Below are positions 16,758-45,790 of a stretch of 49,171 nucleotides of DNA, one piece after another. Location of the stretch: assembly GCA_964387895.1 (NCBI GenBank), contig CAYLWX010000003.1, positions 1,277 through 50,447 of the forward strand, written 5' to 3'. The translations under genes were made by a program, and so were the position numbers. Source of the DNA: an uncultured Bdellovibrionales bacterium (GTDB lineage Bacteria; Patescibacteriota; Minisyncoccia; Moranbacterales; UBA2206). Position 1 is the first letter of the stretch, and each line of letters starts with the position of its first letter. The notes below the pieces were generated by a model. The model did no database searches. It was given only the letters and a program-made list of their open reading frames with translations, and had not been told where the DNA came from.

Positions 16758-16798
16758 TACTCTTTGAAAATTTTCACTTTTCTGATAGGATTTGAGCT

Positions 16799-17461
16799 AT
16801 GAACATGGAACACATCAAAGCAATACTTTTTGACATGGACGGAGTTATTGTAGATTCGGAACCGATCCATGACAAGGCAATGAAGCAGACATGTCTTGAT
16901 TTTGGCATTGAACTTCATTCGAAAGAAATGGATGGTTTTCGCGGCAGGAAACTGGAGGATATTATTTCCAGTATCATTCACGCGTATGGAAAGGATGAAA
17001 GACTTGCCGAAGCAATGACCGCGCGCAAGGTGGAACTTTATCTTCTTTACGCGTTAAAAGAAATGGAACTTACTACGGGTGTGTATGAATTTCTAATAAA
17101 TCTTCGAAAAAACCTTCGCTATCAGTGCGCGGTAGTTACTTCAGGAAGAAGAATTTCACAGGAAAAAATTCTTCGTAAATTTGATCTTCTGGATTTTTTT
17201 GAAATAATCGTAACTGCTGAAGACGTCCACTTTGGAAAACCGCATCCTGAACCATACATGATTACCGCTGACAAACTAAAAGAAAAACCGGAAAATTGTC
17301 TGGTAGTGGAAGATGCGGAAAATGGCATTCTTTCCGCTAAAGCCGCCGGATGTGTGGCATGTGGAATTACTACTACTTTTGATGCCGAGCGCCTCAAAAA
17401 AGCCGGAGCGGATGTGGTGGTAGGGAGTTTTGGAGAGTTAGGGAAAATTCTTAATATTTGA
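16799..17461 (+). CDS. HAD-family phosphatase (beta-PGM/YqaB-like)
   Basis: FDMDGVIVDSE, VTSG, GKPHPEPY, VEDAENG. Confidence 0.93.
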   Translation: MNMEHIKAILFDMDGVIVDSEPIHDKAMKQTCLDFGIELHSKEMDGFRGRKLEDIISSIIHAYGKDERLAEAMTARKVELYLLYALKEMELTTGVYEFLINLRKNLRYQCAVVTSGRRISQEKILRKFDLLDFFEIIVTAEDVHFGKPHPEPYMITADKLKEKPENCLVVEDAENGILSAKAAGCVACGITTTFDAERLKKAGADVVVGSFGELGKILNI

Positions 17462-17491
17462 AAAGTAAACAAACTTAACTATGCATGATAT

Positions 17492-18181
17492 ATGAAAATT
17501 ATATTTCTCAATGCTTGGAATGGAGAAGTTGAAAGTGAAATGATAAAATTTATTAAAGATCAGCGTAGAACTGCTGATGTTTTTTGTTTTCAGGAAGCAG
17601 GAGATAGGGTAAAATTTCTTTGCAAAGATATACTTCATGACTTCGAAGAAATTTCTGCGTATAAGTATGTAGATGCTGAAGAAGATTTTCCGCAAGCGAC
17701 ATACGCAAGTAGAAATGTGAGAGTACTTTCTTCGGAAATATTATTTGAAGGGCACATGGATTGCGGGATTGGAATATATACTAAAGTTGAGGTTGGAAAT
17801 ATTAGTATACATATTTGCAACTTTCATGGCATGTCAAAACCGGGTGATAAATTAGATAATCCCGGCAGATTGAAACAATCGCAGGGGCTAATTGAATTTT
17901 TTAAAGACAAGCAAGGTTTAAAAATCATCGGGGGAGATTTTAACTTGCTTCCAGAGACTAAAAGCGTACAAATGTTTGAAGAGAATGGGTACAGGAATTT
18001 GATTAAATATTTCAAAATTCCAACTACGCGCAATCGCTTGGTATGGGAAAGATATCTAAATAATAAACAATATCATTCTGATTATATCTTCGTAAGTTAG
18101 GATGTTAAAATTAAAAATTTTTCCGTCCCGAACATTGAAATTTCAGACCATCTGCCCTTAATTTTGGAGGTTGAATTATAA
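17492..18181 (+). pseudogene. endonuclease/exonuclease/phosphatase (EEP) interrupted by in-frame TAG at 18098-18100
   Basis: FLNAW, CFQE, GGDFN, DYIF; frame continues past TAG to DVKIKNFSVPNIEISDHLPLILEVEL-stop. Confidence 0.85.
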
Positions 18182-18449
18182 TGATGGCATAATTTTATTG
18201 TACTCTTTTATTTCCAGATAAAGTAATTTTGCTTTATATTACATCATTAAATATCAGAAAAAATATCACAAAACGGTCTGCCGCTTAGCTTTCAAAGCAG
18301 GTATATTGACAGAGTGATACTATGAAAGATGTTAAAAAAGAAGAACTTGCATGTATTGACTTTTTGCATATTAGCTGCTAAAAATATAGCAAACACTTTT
18401 GGAAAAAGGGAGTGTTATTAGTTCCATCACAATAAAGGGAGGAAGAAAG

Positions 18450-18980
18450 ATGAATTCTGAAAAAAGTGTAAGTGTAATTAGGAAGGGCTGGGATATGGCA
18501 TCGGGAATTTTGGGTGCTGGAGCTGTTGTGATTCTGGCCTTGCTTGTTATAAGCATTATTGGCCTTGCAACGTTTCGCTTAACAGCGGTTACTTCGGTGG
18601 AAAACTACGAGTATTCCTATAAGTTTGACCGCCTGGCTGGAAAAATCGAACGTCTCAATCAAATTGGCTATATTGTAGCCATACCTGTTTTGGAAAAAGT
18701 TCACAAGATAGACACTCGTCCGATGCAAGTTTGTATTAGCGCGATTCAGCGAGTGCTAAATTGTAAGCTCGTGCAATTTAATCCAGGCGGACTTGAATTA
18801 TTTCTGCAATGGCATGGACGGGGAGATTACAGTAATGAGGGTGGTACAAGGGAAGATCCTACAACTTTTAACGAGATTCTGATGGCATATGCGTATGAAG
18901 GAAGCGGAAAAAGTTATCCGTTTCTTACTATTATTCGAGAGCTGAAGTCAGAAGAAATTTCAGAAGGGAATAAACGATGA
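18450..18980 (+). CDS. membrane-anchored protein, paralog of the next gene
   Basis: GGAGG RBS; N-terminal TM; IDTRPMQVCIS..NCKLVQF..YPF. Confidence 0.75.
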   Translation: MNSEKSVSVIRKGWDMASGILGAGAVVILALLVISIIGLATFRLTAVTSVENYEYSYKFDRLAGKIERLNQIGYIVAIPVLEKVHKIDTRPMQVCISAIQRVLNCKLVQFNPGGLELFLQWHGRGDYSNEGGTREDPTTFNEILMAYAYEGSGKSYPFLTIIRELKSEEISEGNKR

Positions 18981-19471
18981 AAAAGATTTTAGTTTCCCTC
19001 CTGTCTTATTTTCAAGGAGTTAATCCATGGGCTAAGCATTGGCTGGTTATTGCCGTTCGTGGATTCATGATAGTGATCCTTTTTTATCTTTTCTGTATAC
19101 ACTATCTTGAACCTCATCAAGCGGCAATAGTTTGGGATCGTGTTACCGGAAAACTTTGGCTTGATACCAAGCCGGCGTGGCACTTTACATGGCCCTGGGT
19201 TTCCGCCGCGCGTATTGATATGCGCCCTCAACGCGTGTGCATCACCTCAGGGACCAAAGCAGTAAATTGTAAGCTTGTTCGTTTTAAAGCAAGTGCGTTT
19301 AGGGAATTTGTGGCGACGGAGGGATTTCGTTATTACTGGCTCTCTAATCGCCTGTCGTTTAATTGGGGGTATGATGAAGAATATCGCGGATGGAGGGACA
19401 TCTTACGCGGATACGCCTTTAGTGTAAAAAAATATCCCTTTATTGTTGTGGTTCAGGAATATAAGGAGTGA
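18977..19471 (+). CDS. membrane-anchored protein, paralog of the previous gene
   Basis: ATGA overlap; IDMRPQRVCIT..NCKLVRF..YPF. Confidence 0.75.
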   Translation: MKKILVSLLSYFQGVNPWAKHWLVIAVRGFMIVILFYLFCIHYLEPHQAAIVWDRVTGKLWLDTKPAWHFTWPWVSAARIDMRPQRVCITSGTKAVNCKLVRFKASAFREFVATEGFRYYWLSNRLSFNWGYDEEYRGWRDILRGYAFSVKKYPFIVVVQEYKE

Positions 19472-19491
19472 AGATAGTTTGAACCCCTGGA

Positions 19492-19511
19492 ATAGCTATT
19501 CCAGGGGTTCT
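19492..19511 (+). terminator. hairpin after the paralog pair (full inverted repeat 19481-19510)
   Basis: GAACCCCTGGAATAG/CTATTCCAGGGGTTC perfect inverted repeat. Confidence 0.5.
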
Positions 19512-19598
19512 CATTGTATAAAAGGAAAAACTAAAGAGAAAAACCAGGATTAATTCTTTTCTTAATCTTCTATTTCCTCTTTATATAATCCGGGTTAT

Positions 19599-19779
19599 TC
19601 TTTGAAAATTTTCACTTTTCTGATAGGATTTGAGCTATGAATAGGGAACACATCAAAGCAATACTTTTTGACATGGACGGGGTTATTGTAGATTCGGAAC
19701 CGATCCATGAAAAGGCAATGAAGCAGACATGTCTTGATTTTGGAATTGGAGAATTGGAAAAAATGCTTTATGTATGAAG
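19599..19779 (+). pseudogene. internally deleted duplicate of the HAD gene
   Basis: 19599-19748 nearly identical to 16761-16910, then jumps to sequence resembling the HAD 3' end (GELEKMLYV vs GELGKILNI). Confidence 0.85.
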
Positions 19780-20409
19780 TTAATGCGTAATATCCCATTT
19801 TACTCAAACACTCCCGACAATACACACTGTTTTCAGGCTGTTTTTAAAATGGTCTTAAAATATTTCTGGCCGGAAAAGGATTTTTCATGGGAAGAGTTGG
19901 AGAAAATAACTGCCAAGCAAGAAGGGTTATGGACATGGCCTATGGCGGGACTGTTGTGGATGCAGGCGCATGGATTTGAGGTAAGAAATATTGAGGAATT
20001 TGATTATGAAGAATTTGCTCAACTTGGAGAACAATATCTTGAAGAATATCTTGGGCCAGAGGTAGCAAAAACACAAATTGAGCATAGCAGCATCGCGCAG
20101 GAGAGAATAATTGCAAAGAAATTTATGGAAAAAGTTCGCACGGAAAAAAGAATTCCTGTGCTGGATGATGTGAAAAGTCTTTTGCGGAAAGGGTATATAC
20201 TTGTTGTAAATCTTAACTCATGCGCTCTGAACGAAAGGGAAGGATATTCCGGCCACTCTGTAGTTATTACAAGCCTTGATGAAGAATATGTTTTTCTTCA
20301 CGATCCGGGTCTTCCAGCAAGAGAAAACAGAAAAGTAGCGCTGTCTATTTTTGAAAAAGCGTGGGCATATCCGGATGAAAAAATGAAGAATATTGCGGCA
20401 ATAAGGTAG
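19774..20409 (+). CDS. peptidase C39-like protein
   Basis: Putative Cys (HCFQA), His (GHSVVI) and Asp (LHDPG) triad. Confidence 0.75.
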   Translation: MKLMRNIPFYSNTPDNTHCFQAVFKMVLKYFWPEKDFSWEELEKITAKQEGLWTWPMAGLLWMQAHGFEVRNIEEFDYEEFAQLGEQYLEEYLGPEVAKTQIEHSSIAQERIIAKKFMEKVRTEKRIPVLDDVKSLLRKGYILVVNLNSCALNEREGYSGHSVVITSLDEEYVFLHDPGLPARENRKVALSIFEKAWAYPDEKMKNIAAIR

Positions 20410-20552
20410 CTATGATACGTCCGTATATCTTTTTACTCTTATATTTCCGGATGACTATTAGTAATAAAAGATTACAGGTAGTTTATTTTATGATACTATA
20501 TAATGAAAGTTGGTGAATACATAACCAGTAATCACGGAAAGGAGTACGAAGT

Positions 20553-21029
20553 ATGGATACGCTTGTTATTATCGGAGCTATACTTGCTCTCCTGGGGGTA
20601 ATAGGAAGTATGCTGCCGGTTATGCCCGGGCCGATTTTTAGTTTAGCGGCGTTGGTGGTATTGTATTTTGCCAGGGGCGCGGAAACAATATCATTGCTAA
20701 CTCTCGCGATATTCGGATTAGCTACCTTACTTCTGATTCTTATTGATTATGTCGCGCCTGTGTTGGGAGCCAAATTTTCCGGTGCGTCCAAAGCGGGGTT
20801 ATGGGGATCCATAATTGGAGCGCTGGTGGGGATTATTCTCTTTCCACCGGCGGGAATTTTCATCGGTGCCTTTCTGGGAGCGATCGCGGGAGAAATATAT
20901 GAAGGAAAAGAATTGCGTGCCGCGGTGCGGGCGGGAGCGGGTACAGTGGCGGGTAGTGTAGCAGTAATCGCGTTACAAGTCATCTTTTCTTTAGTGGTGC
21001 TGGTGTATTATTTCGCGAAAATTGTATAG
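20553..21029 (+). CDS. DUF456-family membrane protein
   Basis: LPVMPGP, IDYVA..LGAK..GAS, GAFLGA..GE. Confidence 0.85.
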   Translation: MDTLVIIGAILALLGVIGSMLPVMPGPIFSLAALVVLYFARGAETISLLTLAIFGLATLLLILIDYVAPVLGAKFSGASKAGLWGSIIGALVGIILFPPAGIFIGAFLGAIAGEIYEGKELRAAVRAGAGTVAGSVAVIALQVIFSLVVLVYYFAKIV

Positions 21030-21054
21030 TTTCTTAAAACGAGTTAATACTATT

Positions 21055-21087
21055 GGGCGGCGGGATGAAAGTAGAGCCGCCTTTTTT
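21055..21087 (+). terminator. intrinsic terminator
   Basis: GGCGGC..GCCGCC followed by a T tract; similar to 22470-22500. Confidence 0.65.
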
Positions 21088-21264
21088 CTTTACCCTGAAT
21101 CATTGACAAAATAAAAATTACTGGTAGTATACGTTGAAGTTCATGAACAACTAAATATGGCTTAAAAAAGCGACAAGATATGCTTTAAGGGAGTGCTATG
21201 CTAAAAGCCTGTACATATGTAGGTTTTGTGGTTAGTCGAAGTCAATTTGAGAGGGAGACATAAG

Positions 21265-22443
21265 GTGAAAAAGGAACCACGGCGAAGAAGTGACAGGGTA
21301 AGAGACATATTCAAAATGATGAGGTACATGCGTCACGGAATGGTGACTGGGGATGTCCAGAAGAGTACCTACCATGCTTTTCTTGATCTGTTGAACTCAT
21401 TGAATATGGCTCGTCTTATTGCGCAACGCGTGAGTAATCCTCAGGAAAAGAGTTACATTTTTCGAGAAATTACTCAGGTAACTCGCGAAGATCAGGATTT
21501 GCAACCTATTATAGATTTGTGGGAGCGGGGCGATCTTGATTTAGCGATGAAGGATGAAATTGGCCTGTCTCTTCTGCACGCGTGCTTTTTCTGTGGAAAA
21601 ATGAGAGAAGGCATTCAACTTATGGAAGAAGTTTTTATTGAACATCTCTATTCTTTCGAAGCATATTTAAAAGCCTTGTTGGTAACCTGGACACATACCA
21701 AAAAGAAGAGGTATCTTCATGCCGCAAGGGAAATTGCTGGGAATGGAGAAAATAATAAAGAAAGAGCGCTCGGGTTATATCTTATTGCAGAAAGTACAAA
21801 GGAGAAAGACGATCTGATAGAAGCAAAAAGGGCTTTAAGCAGGGTGATTACCTCTTTTCAAGGGGAACCGGAAATTGATAAATTTTATGCTCGCCGGGCG
21901 AGGGTCTTTTTATGGACAGGAAACTATAAAAAGGCAAGGCAAGCGGCGGGTCTCCTGGGTAGTCAGGAACTTTGCATTGAAGTGAAAGCCGACATTGTGC
22001 TTGCGACCAAGGATAAGGGTGATCTTGCCTCTTTGATGCGTGACTTTGAGAGTTGCGCGTGTCCGGGACCGGTGGCAATTGAAAAGATAGGAAAGGCATG
22101 TCTCTCTGCTCGGGGTAGTGATTTTGTTCGTGAGTGTGCCAGAAGAAGAGACAACGCGGCAGAGCGCTGCCTGTTTGCGGGGATAATAGAGGAAAGCATG
22201 GGAGGAACGGAAGCAGATTTCCAGCAGATGTGGCGCGACTATCATGAAATGATGACAATGTCGACCTCTTCTTTCCGTGAACGATGCAAAATAAGCGCGG
22301 TAGAAAAAATGGTGATGGCAGCAGTGCGCAGAGGCCATTTTTACAGCGCGCATAATATTATTATGGATACTCCGGAGGGAAATCCAAAATCTCAATGCAG
22401 AGGATATATGATGATCTATAAGAAGGAGGTGATTCATTTTTAA
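21265..22443 (+). CDS. hypothetical alpha-helical (repeat-like) protein
   Basis: Long ORF; AGGGAG before GTG 21265; TTGACA promoter at 21103. Confidence 0.7.
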   Translation: MKKEPRRRSDRVRDIFKMMRYMRHGMVTGDVQKSTYHAFLDLLNSLNMARLIAQRVSNPQEKSYIFREITQVTREDQDLQPIIDLWERGDLDLAMKDEIGLSLLHACFFCGKMREGIQLMEEVFIEHLYSFEAYLKALLVTWTHTKKKRYLHAAREIAGNGENNKERALGLYLIAESTKEKDDLIEAKRALSRVITSFQGEPEIDKFYARRARVFLWTGNYKKARQAAGLLGSQELCIEVKADIVLATKDKGDLASLMRDFESCACPGPVAIEKIGKACLSARGSDFVRECARRRDNAAERCLFAGIIEESMGGTEADFQQMWRDYHEMMTMSTSSFRERCKISAVEKMVMAAVRRGHFYSAHNIIMDTPEGNPKSQCRGYMMIYKKEVIHF

Positions 22444-22469
22444 TTAAAATGCCATAAGAGTTTCTCAAA

Positions 22470-22500
22470 GGGCGGCTGATGAAAATCAGGCCGCCCTTTT
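22470..22500 (+). terminator. intrinsic terminator
   Basis: GGGCGGC..GCCGCCC followed by TTTT. Confidence 0.7.
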
Positions 22501-22576
22501 CGTTTTTGTCTTGTTCCCCCATCCAAAAAATGCTATCATATCATGATATCTTACCTTAAAAATTACTTATATTCCT

Positions 22577-23818
22577 ATGAAAACCACAGGGAACAATAAT
22601 AATATACAAAAGAAAAAATATCCCCAACTTCAGAGAACTATTGAAACGGACGTGGCGGTTGTTGGCGGAGGGTTGGCGGGGGTGATGAGCGCTTACCTTC
22701 TGGCCAAAGCCGGCAAGCGGGTGGTGCTTTTGGAATCAAAAGAAATTGGCTCCGGCGCGACACTGCTTACTACCGCGTTTATTACGCAGGTAATCGATAC
22801 TAATATTTCAGATCTTGCAGACATGTTCGGCCGCAAAGTGACGAAACTGGTGTGGGAGTCCGGGAGGAAAGCCATTGAAGAATTAGAGGCAATTGCGCGT
22901 GCTGAACGGATTGATTGTGAGTTTAATCTTTGTCCGGCGTACCAGTTTGCCAATACTAAAAAGCAACTGGCTAAACTGGAAAGCGACGCTATGGCTGCCC
23001 GCCGGATGGAGTTTGATGTTTCTTTTCATCGTGAAAACCAGCTGGAAATCAAACACGCCGGGTATCTTAAAATAAATCATCAAGCTAAGTTTCATCCCGC
23101 TAAATTTCTTTTCGCGCTCGCGGAAAAAGCCGTAGCGCATGGTGCTTCCCTGTTTGAAAACTCCAGGGTAACGGATATCGCCGGTGACGGTCCGGTTACG
23201 GTATATACCAAAGAAGGCAAAATAGTCGCTGATGATGTGATTGTTGCTACCCATTGGCCGTTTGATAATCCCAGAAAAACATGGTTCAAAAAAGGAATTT
23301 ATGTGAGCTATGTCCTGGAATTTGAGATGCCCCCCCGCATTCTGCCGGAAGCAATTTATTGGGACCTGGATAACCCGTATCATTATTTCCGCGTGGATTC
23401 CCGCGGAGAATGCGACCGGCTTATTCTGGGAGGGGGCGACCACCGGAAGGAGATACCGGTGGATATTCATAAAATAGACGAGTCGCTGGAAAAATTTTTA
23501 CGTAAAATACTGGGGTCCGGCGTAGTGTTGAAGATGACTAAAAAATGGGCCGGACCGATTCTGGAGCCAAGCGACGGGTTGCCGCTTATCGGCAGGGTTA
23601 ACCCTCATTACTACGTCGCATCCGCGTTCTCCGGCAACGGCATGACGTATTCCGCCATTGCCGCCATGATGTTTCGGGATATGATTTTGGGAATAAAAAA
23701 TCCATGGGAACGCGTGTATGATCCCATCAGAATTCCGACGTTGAAACAAATTTATATGAAAGGCAGGGATTATATTGGAGAGTTTTTTGGAGGAGCGGTG
23801 AAAAATATGCTTAGGTAA
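22577..23818 (+). CDS. FAD-dependent oxidoreductase (DAO/YhfW-like, no Rieske domain)
   Basis: VVGGGLAG, FHPAK, VATH, DGLPLIG, FSGNGMT. Confidence 0.9.
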   Translation: MKTTGNNNNIQKKKYPQLQRTIETDVAVVGGGLAGVMSAYLLAKAGKRVVLLESKEIGSGATLLTTAFITQVIDTNISDLADMFGRKVTKLVWESGRKAIEELEAIARAERIDCEFNLCPAYQFANTKKQLAKLESDAMAARRMEFDVSFHRENQLEIKHAGYLKINHQAKFHPAKFLFALAEKAVAHGASLFENSRVTDIAGDGPVTVYTKEGKIVADDVIVATHWPFDNPRKTWFKKGIYVSYVLEFEMPPRILPEAIYWDLDNPYHYFRVDSRGECDRLILGGGDHRKEIPVDIHKIDESLEKFLRKILGSGVVLKMTKKWAGPILEPSDGLPLIGRVNPHYYVASAFSGNGMTYSAIAAMMFRDMILGIKNPWERVYDPIRIPTLKQIYMKGRDYIGEFFGGAVKNMLR

Positions 23819-23867
23819 GCGACTCTAATTTACCTGCTCGCAGTGTTACAGCGTTACAGGCGGGCGA

Positions 23868-24440
23868 ATGAACACTCGAATGACACGAATAAATAATACG
23901 AATAGTAAATTAACGGAAACCGTAATATTAGGCGGGGGTTGTTTTTGGTGTTTGGAAGCAGTTTATAATAGAGTAAAAGGCGTGCAGTTGGTGGTTTCCG
24001 GTTATGCCGGCGGGACAAAGGAAAATCCCACCTATGAAGAAGTATGTCTTGGGAATACTGGTCACGCGGAAGTAGTGCAGGTTACGTATGATCCGAAACT
24101 TATTTCATATAAAAATATGTTAGGCATCTTCTTTTCCATTCACGATCCGACTACGCGCAATCAGCAGGGGAATGATGCGGGCACGCAGTATCGTTCGGTA
24201 ATTTTTTTTATGAATGACAAGCAGCGCGATATGGCGGAAAGCGTTATAAAAGAACTATCAGAGAAGCATATCTATGATAATCCGATAGTTACTGAAGTGG
24301 TACCGCTTACTGTGTTTTATCCCGCGGAAACCTGGCATCAGCGTTATTTTGAAAAAAATCCCAACCAGGCGTATTGCCAGCTGGTGATCGCGCCAAAAGT
24401 GGCGAAGTTTCGGGAGAAGTACAGGGAGTATTATAAATAA
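23868..24440 (+). CDS. msrA: peptide-methionine (S)-S-oxide reductase
   Basis: GGGCFWC, GHAEVV, QGND.GTQYRS, FYPAE.WHQ.Y, YC. Confidence 0.96.
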   Translation: MNTRMTRINNTNSKLTETVILGGGCFWCLEAVYNRVKGVQLVVSGYAGGTKENPTYEEVCLGNTGHAEVVQVTYDPKLISYKNMLGIFFSIHDPTTRNQQGNDAGTQYRSVIFFMNDKQRDMAESVIKELSEKHIYDNPIVTEVVPLTVFYPAETWHQRYFEKNPNQAYCQLVIAPKVAKFREKYREYYK

Positions 24441-24453
24441 CTTTCATAAAAAC

Positions 24454-33586: not shown

Positions 33587-33587
33587 A

Positions 33588-37129: not shown

Positions 37130-37155
37130 TGTCGGCGTGTTACGCCGTCTTTTTT

Positions 37156-38634
37156 ATGAATAATCCAACTGTTGAAAACAGCGAGAGCAACAGGAAAAAA
37201 TGCATTTGTCCCAAGTGTCCCAGTTATCCCGAAGGATGCGCGGGAGAAATATTGTATTGCGCTACCGGAAAAAGCCGATGCGACATTTCCGCCAAGGGAT
37301 GCGTGTGCGACGGGTGTCCGGTGTTTTTTGAAAATAATCTTAAGGGGTTATATTATTGCGACAAGGAACAGCGGGGAAAGTCAGGGTATTCCATGAGAAA
37401 AAAGAGATCTGATGAAGACCCGGTGTTTTATGAAGAAATGACCGCGATTAAGGATGTGGCGGACAGCGGTGAAGCAGGGGTGGCTTCCATGGGGTCGCTC
37501 AAAAAGATGCCTTTTTCCTGGAAAGACATTCATTTTATTCCCGCCCAGGTTTTAAAAATTCCTTTGAATAAAGAAGAAGCGGTGAAGACAAAAATTATCC
37601 TCGGTCCGTCTGCCAAAAAACCGCTCATATTGAACTCTCCGATTCTTATCACGGCGATGAGTTTTGGCGCTACTTCCAAAAATGTGAAGCTGGTTATTTC
37701 CAAAGCAGCCAAACAATTGGGGATTGGATTTAATTCAGGCGAAGGGGGAATTTTGGAAGAAGATTATGAAGCGAAAGAATATTTGATCGGCCAGTATGCT
37801 ACCGGAAGATTTGGCATCACCGAAGAAGTGTTGAAATCCGTCGCGGCCGTGGAAATTCGCTTTGGTCAGGGAGCGTATCCCGGGAAAGGAAGTTATCTTC
37901 CAGCCAGGAAAATAACGCCGGAAGTGGCCAGAATTCGTGGATTAAAACCGGGGGAATCGGCCTACTCGCCAGCCCGTCATTTCGACATGACGAGTCCGGA
38001 AGAAATAAAAGAAAAAGTAGTCTGGATTAAAGAGCTTACCGGAGGCGTTCCTGTAGGAGCCAAGATTGGCTGTGGCAATATCGAAGAAGACATCAAAGTT
38101 CTGGTCGACGCGGGAGTTGATTTTATTTCTATCGACGGCTTTAGCGGCGGCACGGGAGCCACGGATTTGTACGTGCGGGAAAATGTCGGACTGCCGCTTT
38201 TCGCGGCCCTGCCTCGGGCGGTCAGAATTTTACAAGAATTGAATATGAAAGAAAAAATCTCCCTCCTGGCCGGCGGAGGATTGCGCACTGCCGGTGATTT
38301 TGCGAAATGTCTGGCGCTGGGAGCGAACGGAGTGTATATTGGTACCGCCGCGCTTATTGCCATGAATTGCGAGCAGTATCGAATATGCCACACGGGTCTT
38401 TGCCCGACAGGAGTAACTACGCATAATCCGGCCCTCACCAGGCAGTTGGATGTGGAAGAAGGAACCAGGAAACTGGTTAATTTTATAAAAACCACCACGG
38501 AAGAAATAGCGAACTTAACCAGAATTACCGGAAAGGACGACGTAAATAATCTTACGAGTGACGATTTAGTGTCTCTGGAAAAAGATTTAGCCGGCATTAC
38601 GGGGTTGAAGTGGCTGGATGGGAAGAAATATTAA
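37156..38634 (+). CDS. FMN-binding glutamate-synthase-family protein with N-terminal DUF2769-like domain
   Basis: AMSFGA, NSGEGG, EIRFGQGA.PG.G, DGFSGGTG, LALGA, C..YRICHTGLCPTGVTT. Confidence 0.9.
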   Translation: MNNPTVENSESNRKKCICPKCPSYPEGCAGEILYCATGKSRCDISAKGCVCDGCPVFFENNLKGLYYCDKEQRGKSGYSMRKKRSDEDPVFYEEMTAIKDVADSGEAGVASMGSLKKMPFSWKDIHFIPAQVLKIPLNKEEAVKTKIILGPSAKKPLILNSPILITAMSFGATSKNVKLVISKAAKQLGIGFNSGEGGILEEDYEAKEYLIGQYATGRFGITEEVLKSVAAVEIRFGQGAYPGKGSYLPARKITPEVARIRGLKPGESAYSPARHFDMTSPEEIKEKVVWIKELTGGVPVGAKIGCGNIEEDIKVLVDAGVDFISIDGFSGGTGATDLYVRENVGLPLFAALPRAVRILQELNMKEKISLLAGGGLRTAGDFAKCLALGANGVYIGTAALIAMNCEQYRICHTGLCPTGVTTHNPALTRQLDVEEGTRKLVNFIKTTTEEIANLTRITGKDDVNNLTSDDLVSLEKDLAGITGLKWLDGKKY

Positions 38635-38661
38635 AATTAAGCCTCTTTATCATTGACTGTT

Positions 38662-39159
38662 ATGATTGATCCTCACATTGTTTACGAAAAATTGATCAAT
38701 CTGCTTGATGATAATAAAGTTGCCTATAAACTGTTTTCCCATAAAGAAGCGTTTACTTACGAAGAGCTTGCCGAGGTTCAAAAAGAGACGGGCTTCTTTG
38801 GAACGGAAATGAAGTGTGTAGTGTTGAAAGTGGATGATGCGTTTATTGTGTATGTAACCATTCAGGGAAGGCGAGTGAATTTTGACAGAATGAAGGAAAC
38901 ATTGGGGGCGCGTAAAATTCGTCTTGCCAGTTCAGAAGAGCTTAATATACACTTTGGCGCGAAACCAGGCTGTGCGTATCCATTTGGTTTTGATGCTCAA
39001 CATAATATATACGTAGATCCTGTTATTTATACTCAGGAATGGATGCTGTTTAGCCCTGTGTTTCCTTCGAAAACTATTCAGGCAAAGGGGGCTGATCTAA
39101 AGAGAGTATTTGACGGGTTGGAGAATGAGGTTTGTGAGGTTGGGGGATTTAATGAATGA
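38662..39159 (+). CDS. YbaK/ProX aminoacyl-tRNA editing family protein
   Basis: MKCVVLK, RLASSEEL...GAKPGCAYPFG, VD. Confidence 0.85.
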   Translation: MIDPHIVYEKLINLLDDNKVAYKLFSHKEAFTYEELAEVQKETGFFGTEMKCVVLKVDDAFIVYVTIQGRRVNFDRMKETLGARKIRLASSEELNIHFGAKPGCAYPFGFDAQHNIYVDPVIYTQEWMLFSPVFPSKTIQAKGADLKRVFDGLENEVCEVGGFNE

Positions 39160-39210
39160 AGGCCTTTTTTAAAATAAGGCGGTTTTTTAGATTATGGTAT
39201 TTTTACTCTT

Positions 39211-39951
39211 ATGAATTGGAGCTCCAGGCATTTAGAAAATCATGTAAAGGCAAGTCGATTGCTTCATTTGATTATCAAAAACACTTTTTCCTATTTGCAA
39301 AAAAGAGGAGAGGGAGTAAGTGAGTATGAAGTCCAGCAATATATAGTGGATCAAATAAGGAAAAAAAGATTAAGGATGGATAAAGACGCGCCTATTGTGG
39401 CGTTCAATGAAAGTTCGGCCGTTCCTCATTATTTCCCTTTGCAAAAATCAAAAAAACTTGTCCATAATTCCCTTGTGTTGCTGGATTTGTGGGCGAGACT
39501 GGATGAATATCACGCACCATTCGCGGATATTACGTGGGTAGGATTTTATGGAAGACGTGTCCCAAAAAGAATAACACAGGTGTTTACTGTTGTACGAGAG
39601 GCTAGAGATGTGGCAATTGAAGCGGTAAGAACTTCTCTGCAAAAGGGAATTGTGCCAAGTGGTGCGCATATTGATGAGGTGTCAATAAGGAAAATAACCC
39701 AGGAAGGATTCGCGCATGCAATATTGCACAGAACGGGCCATTCGATTGGGTTCCATTCTCCTCACGGAAAGAAAAGCCATCTTAACGCGGAAAATCAGGA
39801 TCCGATTGAGAAAAATATGGGATATACTATAGAACCAGGAATCTATATTCCGGACGAGTTCGGCATAAGAAGTGAAGTTGATTTTTATGTGGATGCAAGA
39901 AACAAAATGGTAGTTACTACGCCGGTGCAGAGGTCGATTATTTTAATATGA
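39211..39951 (+). CDS. M24 metallopeptidase (catalytic domain only)
   Basis: PHY, LLDLW, ADIT, HRTGHSIG, TIEPGIY, GIRSE. Confidence 0.9.
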   Translation: MNWSSRHLENHVKASRLLHLIIKNTFSYLQKRGEGVSEYEVQQYIVDQIRKKRLRMDKDAPIVAFNESSAVPHYFPLQKSKKLVHNSLVLLDLWARLDEYHAPFADITWVGFYGRRVPKRITQVFTVVREARDVAIEAVRTSLQKGIVPSGAHIDEVSIRKITQEGFAHAILHRTGHSIGFHSPHGKKSHLNAENQDPIEKNMGYTIEPGIYIPDEFGIRSEVDFYVDARNKMVVTTPVQRSIILI

Positions 39952-40067
39952 GTTTTTCGCGGTAAAATTCTTCTTGACACCCACCCTTCTTTTCTTTAAA
40001 GTGTTGTTATTGCTCTTTGGTAATGGTGGTAGTACTTTTTAATTCTCTTTGTTGAAAGGAGAAGCCC

Positions 40068-40406
40068 ATGTTTTACGATTTTGCGTGCCTTATGCTCAGG
40101 GGTCCCGGAATTACGGATAGGATTCGGAATGAATTGTGTATTGCTGCTTCTGAGTTGATGGAGAACGGAAGTAAAAGCGGAAGAATTAAAACTGATGACT
40201 TTGAAGGCAAAATAACCACGGAAGGAGAGACCAGTGTGTTGGGATCGATTTCCGGCACGGTATTTTTTGCTGAAGTGGAGTCAGGCAGGGGGAAAACATG
40301 CGCAAAGTTTATAATGAGGTTTCCGCTAAGACGTGAAATTTTTGAAGACGGAAAATCTTTTTGGATGGACGTCTCTACTTCTTCGCAAAACGCCCATCTT
40401 AATTGA
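40068..40406 (+). CDS. hypothetical protein
   Basis: AAGGAG RBS; TTGACA-17-TAAAGT promoter at 39974-40002. Confidence 0.7.
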   Translation: MFYDFACLMLRGPGITDRIRNELCIAASELMENGSKSGRIKTDDFEGKITTEGETSVLGSISGTVFFAEVESGRGKTCAKFIMRFPLRREIFEDGKSFWMDVSTSSQNAHLN

Positions 40407-40516
40407 TGCTTTGGTGGTTCGTGCGCGCTTTTTTATAAGGCCTTATTCTTCTTAGGGAAGGGTAAGGCCTTGACTTTTTGTCTTTTTGGGAGTAAAAAGA
40501 TATGTTTCTTTGAAAA

Positions 40517-40834
40517 TTGAAAGTGGGGTGGGCGGGAGTAGCTGTATTAAATCCACAGGGCTTATGCCCTCAATGCAGAGAGGAGAATATTGTGGAGACA
40601 TGTGATGTTTTGAAAGCTCTTGATGTTAGAAGGTTGCATGAATCATTGGAAAAGCTCGAAGGAGTTAAAGGAGAAACAGATATCGACTTGATTAAAAAAG
40701 CCTTGGAGTTGGCCACAAATGAACTCAAAAGAGTTCTTGCTGCGGCAGCTCAACTGGACGAGGAAGACAGGAGACAAAAGAAGCTGGAGGACCATTTCCG
40801 GAAAGTGAGGGAGTTGGGACCAATAGAAAAGTAG
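40517..40834 (+). CDS. hypothetical coiled-coil protein (start uncertain, possibly GTG 40592)
   Basis: Helical charged ORF; GAGGAG near 40580. Confidence 0.55.
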   Translation: MKVGWAGVAVLNPQGLCPQCREENIVETCDVLKALDVRRLHESLEKLEGVKGETDIDLIKKALELATNELKRVLAAAAQLDEEDRRQKKLEDHFRKVRELGPIEK

Positions 40835-40851
40835 CGTCCCTGACCCCATGT

Positions 40852-40917
40852 GTAGGGGTGTATGCTATACGCCCCTACACAAATAATTGGCTTCAATCCT
40901 GAAGCCTTTTTTTATTT
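40852..40917 (+). repeat. GTAG-type REP hairpin plus terminator, direct repeat copy 1
   Basis: GTAGGGG..CTATACGCCCCT..ACAAATAATTGGCTTCAAT.CTGAAGCC-T tract; repeated at 42851-42919. Confidence 0.85.
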
Positions 40918-41008
40918 CTTGACCCTTTATTTTAATAATGATATAACTATATGTCTCTTTGAAAATTAAATAAAAACGTTATAAACCCTAAACAGAAAGG
41001 ATGACGCG

Positions 41009-42844
41009 ATGTCTCAGATGAATGGCGGAGGTAAAAAAGAAGCGAGAGAGATCAGACTTCCTATGGTTAAGAATATGATTCGGAACAGTTTCCGGATTAC
41101 CTCCATGATGCGAAAGGAGCATCAAACACTGCTGGTTTATCTGGGAGTAGTAATGCTTCTGGATGCTTTTCTCCCCTTTTTGGAACGGGGGATGTTCGCG
41201 CTTCTGGTTGATAAGATGACGGAAGTACTGATTCCCGGTCATGAACCGGTCTCTTTCCTTTGGATCATCGCGTTGATCGGATTTCTTTCTCTGGTTTCCA
41301 GGGAGATTTCTTTTTTGTCTCATTATCTGGATATCAGGTTATGGCTTACCGCGGGAAACTATTTCAATATGATGATTCGCCGGCATCGGGCGGTAATAGA
41401 CGTGGCAAAATACGAAGAGCCTAAATTCAATGATTTAGTCAACAGGGTGAATGAAAAGGGGATGTCTTCGCTGGTAAATTTCATGGATCGGCAGTTTGAA
41501 ATAGTAGTTTCATTCGGAAGCATGATCATGGCCTCACTGGTGATCATTTCTTCAAGCTGGTGGATTTTTCTGATAGTCGCGGCAGGAACTATTCCGGAGT
41601 TTTTAGTGGAGGCTCGTTATGGCCGGTCTACATGGGGAATCTGGGACGCGCGAGGTGAAGTGAGGCGTAAGTATCACAGTTTATGCCGGCATTTTGACTG
41701 GGTTCCCTATCTGGTGGAATTAAAACTTTTCCAGAAAGTAGAGCATCTTTATGAGAATATCAAAGAATTGCTTAGGAGTTTTCTGGAAGAAGAATTAAAG
41801 AATGAACGAAGTAAACTTGTCTGGAGGGCGATCTCTCTTGTGTGCTCTGAAGCGGCAATGGTAGTAGTGCTGGCGTTGTTTGTGCGCTGGGTTACACAGG
41901 GAGAGATGAAAATAGGAGGGTTTCTTTTTGTTTTTGGCTCCATGGGTATGCTGAAAGGTAGTCTGAATTCCTTTTGGGGAAACCTGGGGAGACAATATCA
42001 GGACAGCTTGTTTGTAAGTGATGTGTTTGAGTTTCTTTCTGCCCGTCCGTATATTACTGATACGGAAAGCGCGATCAGACTTCCCGCAAAAACTCCTGAA
42101 ATAGTTTTTGAGGACGTGAGTTTCAGGTATCCTGGTACTGACAGGATGGTGCTCCATAATATTTCTCTTCATATCAAGCCGGGAGAAAAAGTAGCGCTGG
42201 TGGGAAAGAATGGAGAAGGAAAGAGCACGCTGCTTAAGCTGCTTTTCCGGTTCTATGATCCTACGGAAGGCAGAATACTTATCGATGGGCATGATCTGCG
42301 GGATATAGAGCTTTCCAGCTGGCACTATCTTCTTGGGGTGTTGCTTCAGAATTATGGAGAGTACAGTTTTCTGACAAAAGACGCAATTGGAATAGGAGGA
42401 AACGTTCTTCAGATTACTTTGGATAAAATCAAGGAAGCGGCACGTGCGAGTGAGGCTGATCAGTTTATTCAGGAATGGCCGAAAGGGTATGATCAGCAGA
42501 TAGGAAGGGAGTTTACTGACGGAATAGACCCGTCTGGAGGCCAGCGTCAAAAGCTCGCTCTGGCCAGAGCTTTGGTAAGAGAATCAAAAGTATTAGTTCT
42601 GGATGAGCCTACTGCCGCAGTGGATGCCGAGGGAGCAGCAAAAATATTTGACAGGCTCTCCAGGCTTTCAAAAAACAGAATGATGATTTTCATCTCACAA
42701 CAATTCTCGGCAGTAAGAAAGGCCGGAAGAATTCTTGTGCTGGAAGGAGGGCGAATCATTGAAAACGGCAGCCATGAAGAGCTAATGGCTCTTGATGGCA
42801 GATATGCTCATCTCTTTCGTCTTCAGGCGGAAGGGTATAGATAA
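41009..42844 (+). CDS. ABC exporter (fused TMD-NBD) with a degenerate NBD
   Basis: GKNGEGKS, PSGGQ, LDEPT, ISQQFS (H-switch His replaced). Confidence 0.9.
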   Translation: MSQMNGGGKKEAREIRLPMVKNMIRNSFRITSMMRKEHQTLLVYLGVVMLLDAFLPFLERGMFALLVDKMTEVLIPGHEPVSFLWIIALIGFLSLVSREISFLSHYLDIRLWLTAGNYFNMMIRRHRAVIDVAKYEEPKFNDLVNRVNEKGMSSLVNFMDRQFEIVVSFGSMIMASLVIISSSWWIFLIVAAGTIPEFLVEARYGRSTWGIWDARGEVRRKYHSLCRHFDWVPYLVELKLFQKVEHLYENIKELLRSFLEEELKNERSKLVWRAISLVCSEAAMVVVLALFVRWVTQGEMKIGGFLFVFGSMGMLKGSLNSFWGNLGRQYQDSLFVSDVFEFLSARPYITDTESAIRLPAKTPEIVFEDVSFRYPGTDRMVLHNISLHIKPGEKVALVGKNGEGKSTLLKLLFRFYDPTEGRILIDGHDLRDIELSSWHYLLGVLLQNYGEYSFLTKDAIGIGGNVLQITLDKIKEAARASEADQFIQEWPKGYDQQIGREFTDGIDPSGGQRQKLALARALVRESKVLVLDEPTAAVDAEGAAKIFDRLSRLSKNRMMIFISQQFSAVRKAGRILVLEGGRIIENGSHEELMALDGRYAHLFRLQAEGYR

Positions 42845-42850
42845 GAAACC

Positions 42851-42919
42851 GTAGGGGCGTGTGGACTCTATACGCCCCTGTACAAATAATTGGCTTCAAT
42901 TCTGAAGCCTTTTTTATTT
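42851..42919 (+). repeat. GTAG-type REP hairpin plus terminator, direct repeat copy 2
   Basis: Matches 40852-40917. Confidence 0.85.
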
Positions 42920-43115
42920 TTCTATAGCCAAAATAACTGCAGGGAGAATTTTACAATAAAATAGCTTATTTAAGCCTGAATAAGGTTATGGCCTGTATTT
43001 CAATGGCTTATTTAAGCCAAGTTATGGCCTTATCCTTTGACAATTGTTGTTGTTTTTGATAGTATACTCTGTTACCCATTATGGGTAATGTTTTTTAATA
43101 ACTAACTACCAATGC

Positions 43116-43688
43116 ATGCGTATCATTAGTATTCTTGTGACGCTGGCGGTTTCATGGGTCATGATCGTGCCCCAGAGCGCGCTGGCAGAAGGAGGAATCA
43201 CTGATGAAACAAATACATACTTCAAAATAGAAAACGAAACAACCTTGAAAGATGGTGCGGTTTCTGAGCTAATACGAATTCCTTATATCTTCCCGGGATA
43301 TCAGCCTGTAAGGGCATTCCAGGAGGAAGCAAATAAAGAGCTGGAAAGGGATAAAAAGCTTTCCAGATTCAAGGAAAGAATGAAAAACGCGGTGCTTCCC
43401 AGGGGAAAGTTCTCTGTGAATGCCAGTGCCTATACTGCTGCGGCCGATGAATGTGGCAAAAGCGACGGCATCACCGCGAGCGGTGTAAAAGTGAAAGAGA
43501 AACGTACTATCGCGTGTCCTCCCCAGTTTCCGTTCGGTACTAAACTGAAAATTGACGGATACGGGACGTATACTTGTGAAGACCGCGGGGGAGCAATCAA
43601 GGGAAATCACATTGACATCTACATGACTACCAAAGCTCAGGCATTTGCCTTCGGGAGAAGGAATCTACTTGCGGAAGTGGTGCAATAA
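43116..43688 (+). CDS. secreted 3D-domain protein (lytic transglycosylase-like)
   Basis: Signal peptide (ALA); ASAYT, GITASG, FPFGT, EDRGGAIKGNHIDIY. Confidence 0.9.
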   Translation: MRIISILVTLAVSWVMIVPQSALAEGGITDETNTYFKIENETTLKDGAVSELIRIPYIFPGYQPVRAFQEEANKELERDKKLSRFKERMKNAVLPRGKFSVNASAYTAAADECGKSDGITASGVKVKEKRTIACPPQFPFGTKLKIDGYGTYTCEDRGGAIKGNHIDIYMTTKAQAFAFGRRNLLAEVVQ

Positions 43689-44208: not shown

Positions 44209-44218
44209 CGGAAATATT

Positions 44219-44256
44219 ATTAAAAGCTTCCATATGTGGAAGCTTTTAATCTTTTT
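44219..44256 (+). terminator. terminator after tRNA-Leu(TAA)
   Basis: ATTAAAAGCTTCCA/TGGAAGCTTTTAAT followed by a T tract. Confidence 0.7.
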
Positions 44257-44363
44257 ATACTTTCCATTGACCCCTGCCGTAGTAAGTTTTATACTGATAT
44301 GATAATGACTAAAAAACTTGTAGTATAAACAAATACTATTTATACTGTGAGCTGAAAATAATA
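44252..44363 (+). repeat. ~110-bp promoter-bearing direct repeat, copy 1
   Basis: TTGACC-~17-TATACT; near-identical copy at 45676-45790. Confidence 0.85.
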
Positions 44364-44407
44364 CCTATACGGTCTAAGTTTAGCACTTACAATTAATTTA
44401 TAGCATT

Positions 44408-44863
44408 ATGAGGCAAAAAATTACACCCAATTTATGGTTCGATGGCAACGCCAAAGAGGCGGTCGATTTTTATCTATCAGTGTTTCCTGACAGTAAAAAA
44501 ATATCTACATCACACTATCCGCACGAAGGGTTGGCTGACTTTCAAAAGAATATGGCTGGCAAGGAACTGACTATTGACTTTGATCTATTCGGCCAGCGCT
44601 TCACCGCCATAAACGCGGGCCCGGAATTTAAGTTTAACGAGTCCGTGTCTTTTCTGATCGCCTGCAAAGACCAGGCTGAAATTGACTACTATTGGGAGAA
44701 ACTGATTGCCGACGGTGGTGAAGAAAGCGTCTGCGGTTGGCTGAAAGACAAATATGGCCTGTCCTGGCAAATAGCACCGGCTAATATGGAAGAGTTAATG
44801 AAAAAGCCGGGCGCCTTTGCCAACATGATGAAAATGAAGAAGATTACCATCGCTGATTTTTAA
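44408..44863 (+). CDS. VOC-family protein (PhnB/3-demethylubiquinone methyltransferase-like)
   Basis: KITPNLWFD, NAGPEFKFNE, CGWLKDKYGLSWQ. Confidence 0.92.
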   Translation: MRQKITPNLWFDGNAKEAVDFYLSVFPDSKKISTSHYPHEGLADFQKNMAGKELTIDFDLFGQRFTAINAGPEFKFNESVSFLIACKDQAEIDYYWEKLIADGGEESVCGWLKDKYGLSWQIAPANMEELMKKPGAFANMMKMKKITIADF

Positions 44864-45022
44864 CAGCAGAGGGTAGGCGTTTGTTTGTCGAAGACATGAT
44901 TCTTGTGGCTTTCAAACCAATAACAAGTAAAGTTTCTCCAGGTGGTGTTATCTTTGCAAATTATGAGCGGGTGGGAGAAGTTAGAACGGGATCGTTTTAG
45001 AATAATACTAATTGGATACTAT

Positions 45023-45499
45023 ATGGCCGAAAAAAGTAAATTGCTACGAATGGATAATGTCGGCATTGTGGTTGAATCTCTCAATGAAGCTATTTCTTTT
45101 TTCACCGAGCTTGGTCTGAAGCTTGAGGGGCGAACTATGGTCGAAGGAGAATGGGCTGGACGAGTCACCGGGCTGGGCGACCAGCGTGTTGAGATCGCAA
45201 TGATGGTCACACCTGACGGTCATAGCCGGCTCGAGCTCTCGCGATTTCTCACCCCGCCTACAGTTGCCGATCACCGGAACGCCCCGGTGAACTCTCTCGG
45301 ATACCTACGCGCCATGTTCACTGTGAGTGATATTGACGAGACTCTCACCAGACTACGCAGGTGTGGCGCGCAACTCGTTGGCGAGGTGGTTCAGTACGAG
45401 GGTTCATATCGACTCTGTTACATCCGCGGCCCCGAAGGACTTCTCATCGGACTAGCCGAGGAGCTTGGCAATAAACAGGCAAAGCATCAGGCATTTTAA
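45023..45499 (+). CDS. VOC/glyoxalase-family protein
   Basis: RMDNVGIVV, FFTELGL, RLELSRF, YIRGPEG.LIGLAE. Confidence 0.9.
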   Translation: MAEKSKLLRMDNVGIVVESLNEAISFFTELGLKLEGRTMVEGEWAGRVTGLGDQRVEIAMMVTPDGHSRLELSRFLTPPTVADHRNAPVNSLGYLRAMFTVSDIDETLTRLRRCGAQLVGEVVQYEGSYRLCYIRGPEGLLIGLAEELGNKQAKHQAF

Positions 45500-45523
45500 T
45501 TTAGGAACTGATAAAATAAACTT

Positions 45524-45583
45524 ATGAAAATTTTTGTCACCAGTGTATTTGTAAAAAATCAAGAAGAAGCTCTTACATTCTAA
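45524..45583 (+). pseudogene. 5' remnant of a third VOC/glyoxalase gene
   Basis: MKIFVTSVFVKNQEEALTF-stop resembles a VOC N-terminus. Confidence 0.6.
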
Positions 45584-45675
45584 AAAGAGCGGCGCTTGAC
45601 AGCCATTGGTCGTCCATAAGTACTTTTACAACAATAGAACACCCGTCGGCTTACGAACGCAACTGACGGGTGAAT

Positions 45676-45790
45676 TTTTTATACCTTCCATTGACCCCTG
45701 CCGCAGTGAGTTTTATACTGATATGATAAGGACTAAAAAACTTGTAGTATAGACAAAAAATATTATTTATACTATGAGTCTGAAATAATA
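45676..45790 (+). repeat. promoter-bearing direct repeat, copy 2
   Basis: Matches 44252-44363; runs into the ATG at 45790. Confidence 0.85.

Follow-up and report, generated by a model that had tools for sequence, protein, structure and literature searches.

Accessory gene modules between locus-specific direct repeats at three sites of a Moranbacteria genome

Bacteria of the Candidate Phyla Radiation (CPR) have tiny, streamlined genomes with few classical mobile elements and a gene content that depends strongly on lineage. We analysed one stretch of DNA from such a genome, a window of 49,171 nucleotides (C3:1277-50447, on contig 3) in a metagenome bin of 985,926 bases and 27 scaffolds, which has a G+C content of ~42%, contains runs of N and is rated 100% complete; the closest loci around rplS are in Candidatus Moranbacteria/Moraniibacteriota bins, at 66-71% identity in protein L19. 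In this window, a conserved backbone of tRNA genes, rplS and some other genes is interrupted by three islands of accessory genes, and within the islands many genes stand between short direct repeats of functional DNA: a gene start with its promoter, a promoter and leader, hairpins, terminators and parts of tRNA genes. An earlier note on this DNA had listed seven such cases and explained them all by one mechanism, the entry of genes through a single short homologous anchor and an illegitimate join, with later erosion of the redundant copy. With moderate confidence we read the window as a mixed pattern instead, in which three additive hot spots lie in the conserved tRNA/rplS backbone and the repeats are the scars of at least two processes.

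The order of the backbone genes is common to nine Moranbacteria loci, and the three islands are additive hot spots in it that together amount to ~32 kb and contain all of the repeat cases (Table 1). Where the window has island 1, 18-1003 nt separate the RluA-type pseudouridine synthase gene from rplS in every one of the 47 related loci that have both genes, out of 89 loci examined (in the rest, which are mostly short contigs or distant homologs, one of them at 50% identity, rplS was undetected in the fetched flank), and no homolog of an island 1 gene was found in the nine syntenic Moranbacteria loci. The interval that holds island 2, from tRNA-Gly(gcc) to the 3D-domain gene, measures ~0.3, 0.3, 0.45, 5.3, 5.6 and 8.6 kb in six relatives, and the gap between tRNA-Leu(taa) and the uracil-DNA-glycosylase gene, which holds island 3, measures ~0.14 and 0.23 kb in relatives L007 and L011. 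The cargo of island 1 includes ABC/MacB-type exporters, a HAD hydrolase, a C39-like peptidase, msrA, a kinase with a zeta-toxin domain, a GT2 glycosyltransferase and a SAICAR-synthetase-like gene. Nearly all genes of the three islands are without a homolog in the genomes of two whole relatives, which bears out the proposal that the bracketed genes are accessory, and the cargo blocks have a G+C content of 0.27-0.375, against 0.39-0.45 for the contigs.

Repeat finding, whole-genome self-BLAST and pairwise alignments identify six of the seven repeat sets as true direct repeats, each specific to its locus, with one to three matches in the genome by self-BLAST, and each unrelated to the sets at the other loci, as the earlier note had said. 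The seventh set, a pair of terminators at 21055 and 22470, is a likeness between hairpins and not a repeat; its members have only a GC hairpin stem and a T run in common and went unreported by repeat finding. Low-copy repeat pairs no more than 8 kb apart number 49 direct and 5 inverted in the genome, where random placement of 151 pairs expects 2.2. When all repeats are counted, pairs on the same contig that are 200-4000 nt apart are still mostly direct (72 versus 25), whereas those more than 16 kb apart (30 versus 35) and those between contigs (1145 versus 1137) are not. The part of the window from 16 to 46 kb, with 12 direct and 0 inverted pairs (4.0 per 10 kb), is the densest spot of this bias in the genome; 80 rplS-centred loci of other bacteria (1.17 Mb) have 48 direct and 24 inverted pairs, or 0.41 per 10 kb, and the Moranbacteria loci among them are likewise rich in repeat pairs. 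Two whole relatives from other genera have the same excess of direct over inverted repeats (18 versus 3 and 22 versus 3, next to 33 versus 3 in this genome), so the bias is a trait of the family. Of the 50 genes in the genome that stand between low-copy direct repeats of this local kind, 34 are missing from the two relatives alike, compared with 294 of 852 genes overall, and only 6 of 2000 permutations reach the value for the bracketed genes.

The first of the two processes is seen at tRNA-Val(tac), where a small open reading frame (ORF) for an 87-aa GIY-YIG protein lies between a broken copy of the tRNA gene and the intact gene. The best PDB match of this protein is 1ywl, a UPF0213 protein of 96 aa (E 5e-5), the named NCBIfam families gave no match, and its nuclease activity is predicted from the domain. 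A conserved hairpin flanks the ORF plus tRNA-Val, at 29960-29975 and 30375-30390. GIY-YIG homologs occur in 61 of the 71 family genomes, and a single genome can have as many as 10. We compared 30 homologous ORFs from 29 loci, all in other genomes of the family. A tRNA gene is no more than 150 nt away for 28 of them, a direct repeat of at least 14 nt flanks 22, and for 16 of the 30 the repeat lies inside the tRNA. The three closest homologs (62-64% identity), from three other genera, are likewise all located at tRNA-Val(tac), with this hairpin in a tRNA-Val copy. A nuclease gene beside the same target gene in related lineages is one of two features of a free-standing homing-endonuclease cassette, the other being that cassette-free alleles are cut and the cassette is copied into them. 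These comparisons show the tRNA-Val case to be a cassette of a predicted GIY-YIG nuclease and a hairpin, whose layout (tRNA fragment, nuclease, intact tRNA, conserved hairpin) is found across the family. The idea that the window has no recombinase gene therefore stands for integrases and resolvases, with no match to PF00589 or PF00239 in the window, but it had overlooked the GIY-YIG gene inside the tRNA-Val case. The hairpin of the cassette also occurs at 7696-7711, inside one copy (7639-7769) of a dispersed repeat with ~27 copies.

At the neighbouring tRNA-Gly(gcc), the repeat units are also tRNA parts. A 5' fragment precedes ORF219, which is followed by a chimeric tRNA-Gly, and this chimera implies recombination between two tRNA-Gly genes in their shared T arm. 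ORF219 has no match in Pfam, PHROGs or NCBIfam; one homolog was found, and there is a weak GNAT_C/YkoP-like lead only. The block between the chimera and the intact tRNA-Gly(ccc) encodes an MNT/HEPN pair, an ArsR protein, a thioredoxin-reductase-like protein and small ORFs without assignment.

The trace of a second kind of event lies in island 1, in a short piece (26281-26359) upstream of the GT2 glycosyltransferase gene. Positions 26281-26330 are 98% identical to the interior of that gene at 27416-27465, and they run directly into a hairpin (h2) of the kind that ends the GT2 module (h3) and follows msrA (h1). The junction falls at a 14-15-mer that is also present at 27451-27465, inside the GT2 gene, and at 27986-28000, just before h3, and the junction in 26281-26359 is exactly what would result if 535 nt were deleted between these 15-mers (27451 and 27986). 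There were thus once two copies of the module of GT2 gene, membrane ORF and h3, and the spare one was cut back at microhomology; erosion by microhomology deletion, as previously proposed, is borne out here, at one junction. The hairpins have folding energies of -19 to -24 kcal/mol, and on the minus strand a T run comes after each of them. The original copy is probably h3, which stands 41 nt beyond the stop codon of the minus-strand SAICAR-synthetase-like gene (28072-29121) and reads as the terminator of that gene. As plus-strand terminators, h1-h3 were uncalled by the consensus scan, and their terminator-like reading is on the minus strand. In the adjoining zeta-toxin block, an isochorismatase-family gene (25541-26188) seems to be split and is probably a pseudogene with a frameshift: the family match is limited to 25862-26188 (profile positions 83-166), and immediately upstream there is a 79-aa ORF.

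Three further repeat sets consist of signals at gene boundaries, and the promoter- and terminator-like sites named for them are consensus matches, which do not prove function. The two copies of the HAD repeat, each of 153 nt, have 6 differences; the 112 coding nt account for 5 of these, and the other one, in the 41 upstream nt, precedes the -35 hexamer. The promoter-like site of the left copy, TTGAAA-16-TAGGAT, is at 16764-16791. In the right copy, the C39-like peptidase gene (19774-20409) has a start that overlaps with the stop codon of the HAD remnant, an arrangement that fits a retained promoter now serving the C39-like and DUF456 genes. The REP-like (repetitive extragenic palindromic) hairpins with their terminators are 85-87% identical. 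The two copies of the promoter and 5' leader in island 3 are ~90% identical and have kept the -35 and -10 hexamers and an 8-nt inverted repeat; the first is predicted to drive a PhnB-like gene (44408-44863) and a glyoxalase gene (44942-45499), and the blocks downstream of both copies are accessory.

Table 1. Backbone, islands and repeat-associated features, with positions counted from the first nucleotide of the window
Feature	Position	Strand	Description
Backbone, start			tRNA-Arg, then CCA-adding/poly(A)-polymerase-like gene 1212-2678, then genes 4830, 7024, 7799
Backbone, middle			tRNA-Leu(tag), RluA-type pseudouridine synthase gene 11239-12171 (Pfam), rplS 29326-29799
Backbone, tRNA part			after rplS: tRNA-Leu(gag), Val, Phe, Gly(gcc)
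Backbone, end			3D-domain gene 43116-43688, tRNA-Cys, tRNA-Leu(taa), uracil-DNA-glycosylase gene 46663-47259 (minus strand), two more genes
Island 1	12172-29325		17.2 kb (17,154 nt) of accessory genes, from RluA-type synthase gene to rplS
Island 2	30600-43115		12.5 kb, from tRNA-Gly(gcc) to 3D-domain gene
Island 3	44210-46662		2.45 kb, from tRNA-Leu(taa) to uracil-DNA-glycosylase gene
NTS/SRM-like hairpin element	16713-16757	-	abuts left HAD copy; reads as 37-nt insertion relative to right copy
HAD repeat, left copy	16758-16910	+	promoter-like site, ribosome-binding site and first 37 codons of complete HAD gene 16799-17461
HAD repeat, right copy	19596-19748	+	same promoter and truncated 46-codon ORF 19637-19777; promoter-like site 19602-19629
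Hairpin h1	24450-24490		just 3' of msrA (23868-24440); fold -18.6/-21.4 kcal/mol; minus-strand T run
Second GT2 module, remnant with hairpin h2	26281-26359		50 nt of GT2 interior joined to h2
Intact GT2 module	26440-28031	+	GT2 glycosyltransferase gene 26440-27600 (Pfam), 118-aa membrane ORF 27628-27984, hairpin h3 27987-28031
tRNA-Val pseudo-copy	29934-30005	+	broken in T loop; 16-nt GC hairpin in place of 5' strand of anticodon stem
Single-domain GIY-YIG nuclease gene (predicted), 87 aa	30009-30272	+	PF01541, E 2.9e-15, residues 3-73
Intact tRNA-Val(tac)	30263-30339	+	
Second tRNA-Val-like 5' piece	30349-30396	+	same hairpin; directly before tRNA-Phe
tRNA-Gly 5' fragment	30620-30677	+	positions 1-58, ends in T loop; CTC at anticodon position
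ORF219	30726-31385	+	cargo between tRNA-Gly fragment and chimeric tRNA-Gly
Chimeric tRNA-Gly	31412-31483	+	5' part of ccc gene and 3' end of gcc gene; mismatched acceptor stem
Intact tRNA-Gly(ccc)	36728-36799	+	closes 5.2-kb low-GC block 31484-36727
REP-like hairpin and intrinsic terminator, copy 1	40852-40919	+	terminator-like site 40889-40906
REP-like hairpin and terminator, copy 2	42851-42923	+	3' of ABC-transporter gene 41009-42844; terminator-like site 42892-42909
Promoter/5'-leader repeat, copy 1	44252-44363	+	TTGACC-17-TATACT at 44267-44295
Promoter/5'-leader repeat, copy 2	45676-45790	+	reaches start codon of DUF2935 gene 45790-46653; promoter-like site 45691-45719

From the repeats, the accessory content, the layout of the nuclease cassette and the one deletion junction, all of which are directly visible, we reconstruct the following order of events, in which taken-up DNA may have had a role. 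Accessory modules of one to a few genes would pile up at the three hot spots by two routes. On the first, small selfish cassettes would insert at tRNA genes, duplicating part of the tRNA and leaving a working gene behind; the tRNA-Val locus shows this, and we infer it for tRNA-Gly, where recombination between the two tRNA-Gly genes would additionally have made the chimera. On the second, a module with its own boundary element, either a promoter with a gene start or a terminator hairpin, would have come to stand twice, through local duplication or through the arrival of a second allele. The redundant copy would then have been cut down by deletion between short repeats, and the surviving piece would be the part that still serves a neighbour, as promoter for the next gene or as terminator. 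Joining would proceed by RecA-type and illegitimate recombination, with no single site-specific recombinase. A single mechanism does not fit all seven cases: the tRNA-Val case is a family-wide nuclease cassette, the tRNA-Gly case carries a recombinant tRNA, and one case is not a repeat.

The rest of the genome contains several other repeats and candidate mobile units. Its recombinases are one tyrosine recombinase (PF00589, contig 1) and one large serine recombinase, both off the contig of the window. In the region 81248-82407 of contig 1, the gene for the former lies just before tRNA-Val(gac), with short fragments of tRNA-Phe and tRNA-Lys just after it, and may mark a small integrated element. 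The genome has ~60 oriented copies of a hairpin repeat that comes very close to the NTS/dRS3 consensus of Neisseria, with 72 palindromic cores against 0 in shuffles; in the window it occurs at 10019-10041, 10145-10167 and 49002-49024, and throughout the genome pairs of inverted copies form a dispersed element of ~200 nt with ~60 copies. On contig 14 (18850-21750), two genes for 99-aa GIY-YIG proteins each stand between inward-facing NTS-like repeats, and these units make up a 403-nt direct repeat (85%) with rmlD- and rmlB-like genes in between. On contig 3 (70741-72172), a single AAA_14/DUF4143 gene has tRNA-Pro(cgg) on one side and an exact 55-nt copy of the 3' end of that tRNA on the other, and on contig 6 (15136-16540) another such gene lies between 34-nt direct repeats; by their surroundings, these ATPase genes appear to behave like one-gene insertions. 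A 113-nt repeat (96%) brackets an MNT-HEPN fusion outside the window. Within the window, an 84-aa DUF2769 ORF (36875-37129) lies directly 5' of a glutamate-synthase-domain gene (37129-38634) that itself opens with DUF2769, a small tandem duplication of the domain. Comparable arrays are found in relatives. In L011 (9855-11804), four unrelated single genes at the same tRNA-Gly(gcc) hot spot are set apart by three copies of an intergenic repeat of ~60 nt, and on contig 10 of G005 (111591-116631), four copies of a 70-90-nt repeat, which includes a piece like a tRNA 3' end, bound three gene blocks that are absent from the genome studied here and from G004.

Several other explanations can be set against the mixed reading. 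The one that the earlier note had put forward, in which taken-up DNA enters through one short homologous anchor and an illegitimate join, so that the donor's copy of a promoter, terminator or tRNA comes to stand beside the resident one and the redundant copy erodes, is possible but unlikely as the only mechanism. It would suit the low G+C content of the cargo, the erosion step visible at 26281-26359 and the differences of 4-15% between copies, as expected of orthologous sequences of donor and recipient. It also presupposes uptake, and of the three genes that the note had tied to this process, comEC and recA are present, together with six matches to type IV pilus-type ATPases over cut-off, but DprA was not found in a search of the genome, and a ComEA-type HHH_3 match scores below the family cut-off only. 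Natural competence is reported for Saccharibacteria, another CPR group, in one article (PMC10633639) and its preprint (PMC10187176). However, no DNA resembling a donor turned up when island 1 was compared with 318 other genomes of the order, no anchor-only alleles are among the sequences found, and neither the GIY-YIG cassette architecture common to several genera nor the chimeric tRNA-Gly is explained by it. It is rather improbable that the islands are decayed site-specific ones, in which modules entered at att-like sites (tRNA ends or hairpins) by integrase-type recombination and stacked in tandem, the integrases having since been lost or acting in trans, as for cis-mobilizable elements beside integrative and conjugative elements. 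Direct repeats of tRNA parts do flank the tRNA-Gly cargo, and outside the window the exact tRNA-Pro(cgg) copy after a single gene, the repeats around three accessory blocks on G005 contig 10 and the tyrosine recombinase beside tRNA-Val(gac), with its nearby tRNA fragments, all have the look of such integration. But it is the 5' part of the gene that is duplicated at tRNA-Val and at tRNA-Gly, whereas integrases are said, after Williams in 2002, to duplicate the 3' parts of tRNA genes. In addition, the repeats differ from locus to locus, the HAD, promoter and GT2 repeats consist of gene and promoter pieces and not of att-like cores, and neither of the two recombinase genes of the genome is in the window.

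We give little credence to a history of tandem duplication and decay that was entirely local and without horizontal input, in which the cargo was always present and the repeats are leftovers of second copies. The GT2 remnant proves that one second copy existed, and the large excess of local direct over inverted repeats is what tandem duplication predicts. Yet the genes between the repeats are mutually unrelated and are absent from relatives in which the backbone is fixed, so DNA had to arrive, whatever made the repeats; the blocks of low G+C content also point to arrival. Finally, in a scaffolded metagenome bin with runs of N, the assembler might have strung the alleles of several strains together at shared short sequences. 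Four public runs, from two samples of one groundwater metagenome study, contain the stretch, in short contigs of low depth. In run X1, the sole contig over the right HAD copy has the left copy's letters at 19642, 19644 and 19711, and the right copy's own variants are unseen in the run contigs, which drop rare variants. Such an artefact is nonetheless very unlikely. Contigs of the public runs bridge the msrA-h1-zeta and DUF456-ORF405 junctions, those of the second sample bridge the GIY-YIG/tRNA-Val and tRNA-Gly fragment/ORF219 junctions, and the same architecture recurs in independent assemblies of other genera. The flanks of the repeat copies differ, because of which no simple graph path would join them. 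Joins from one repeat copy to the other are in no contig of the four runs, and depth is flat over these short, low-depth contigs; the parts left uncovered in runs X2-X4 carry no weight as evidence.

Other observations count against the mixed reading itself. With the present sequences, local duplication and the arrival of a second allele are indistinguishable. The collection of 30 relatives includes no genome of the same genus in which an empty site, alternative cargo or a donor allele could be seen. A metagenome scan with the SAICAR-synthetase-like island gene as query gave no match, and a scan with the backbone gene 11239-12171 gave a best identity of 61% and no contig of the same genus. In the search of those 318 genomes for a donor, island 1 DNA found only 65-72% identity, over gene-sized stretches. 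Genes were called accessory by their absence from two relatives of other genera, and the calls are crude ORFs of at least 100 aa. Outside the window, 17 of 29 bracketed genes are absent from the relatives, which has the same direction as the genome-wide result, but 137 of 2000 permutations reach this value and it is not significant alone. A clean deletion signature is present at only one junction. For the tRNA route, the 87-aa nuclease is without a separate DNA-binding domain, and its activity and target are predictions; in ORF219 and the 5.2-kb block, no nuclease or integrase was detected with Pfam, PHROGs or NCBIfam.

On the mixed reading, the extra genes of this CPR genome gather at a few fixed sites next to rplS and tRNA genes, in small modules that have a promoter or terminator of their own. 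The scars that they carry are those expected of recombination through very short homology and of a nuclease cassette that targets tRNA genes. If turnover between strains were confirmed, these sites would be natural landing pads and a handle on gene flow in the CPR. To our knowledge, this group is not yet cultivable, and its genetic manipulation is not known outside Saccharibacteria. A much bolder generalization, which we regard as a long shot, is that Moranbacteria, and perhaps the CPR at large, build small cassette arrays without integrases: hairpins at tRNA genes and terminators would be the targets of structure-specific, single-domain GIY-YIG nucleases, repair of the breaks would draw on taken-up or sister DNA through very short homology, and each event would add a module and a fresh boundary element. 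If true, this would be a functional counterpart of the integron, driven by nucleases and RecA, in genomes too small for many mobile elements.

Several known systems share features with the window. In homology-facilitated illegitimate recombination, foreign DNA joins beside one homologous anchor through microhomology joins and without a dedicated recombinase, and recipient DNA is replaced. The process does not by itself duplicate the anchor. The term is used for naturally transformable bacteria in two articles (PMC6382021, PMC8116780). Tandem genomic islands and cis-mobilizable elements at tRNA genes, the subject of PMC5704250 and PMC6323972, likewise have stacked blocks without integrases that are bounded by direct repeats of tRNA parts. 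In this window, however, 5' parts are duplicated, the blocks measure 0.3-5 kb, and no conjugative or integrative partner element is seen; islands that integrate at tRNA genes have an integrase at one end and a tRNA 3' repeat at the far end, and here a 3' copy is found only at tRNA-Pro(cgg), outside the window. With integrons, the window and the L011 locus share tandem modules of unrelated, mostly co-oriented genes that end in similar imperfect palindromes (h1-h3, and the three copies in L011). Nevertheless, the earlier comparison with integron arrays is an analogy only. No IntI-type integrase is near the array, the sole PF00589 match of the genome being on contig 1, and the repeats do not follow the integron plan, in which every cassette ends in an attC site of a common family, with attI and Pc in addition: they are particular to each array, number only two or three copies, and in some cases are promoters or gene starts.

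Closer parallels come from Neisseria and from phages. The minimal mobile elements of Neisseria are defined by different cassettes at one site in different strains. Like the islands described here, they are accessory genes between conserved flanking genes, have no mobility gene of their own and belong to a lineage with DNA-uptake genes; in our case, conserved flanks with intervening genes that are absent in relatives are found at the level of the family only. PMC3787668 belongs to the literature on these Neisseria systems. In the cluster of tRNA genes of T-even phages, SegB, a free-standing GIY-YIG homing endonuclease, drives segmental amplification through breaks and homologous recombination at microhomology, with repeat units that consist of tRNA and nuclease (PMC13096335). 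The tRNA-Val cassette resembles this system in having a GIY-YIG gene beside tRNA genes, but SegB is borne by phages, whereas the gene here is chromosomal, encodes a single domain in 87 aa, a predicted nuclease, and has a conserved hairpin in the tRNA pseudo-copy. The NTS/Ssn system of Neisseria, with single-domain GIY-YIG nucleases that cut single-stranded DNA site-specifically at hairpin repeats, and for which the NTS consensus and an NTS-ssn-NTS layout were described (Chenal et al. 2025, PMC11893778), differs in that our six repeat sets are locus-specific pieces of genes, promoters, terminators and tRNAs, and tRNA genes and Patescibacteria have 0 occurrences each in the main text of that article. 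There are also likenesses to it: by PF01541 and size, the 87-aa protein is a small single-domain GIY-YIG protein, as in the Ssn/SRM system, such genes are flanked by copies of a 20-50-nt hairpin repeat both at the tRNA-Val locus and on contig 14, the ~60-copy hairpin repeat of this genome nearly matches the NTS consensus, and the contig 14 GIY-YIG genes between their inward-facing NTS-like copies have the same layout as ssn in Neisseria.

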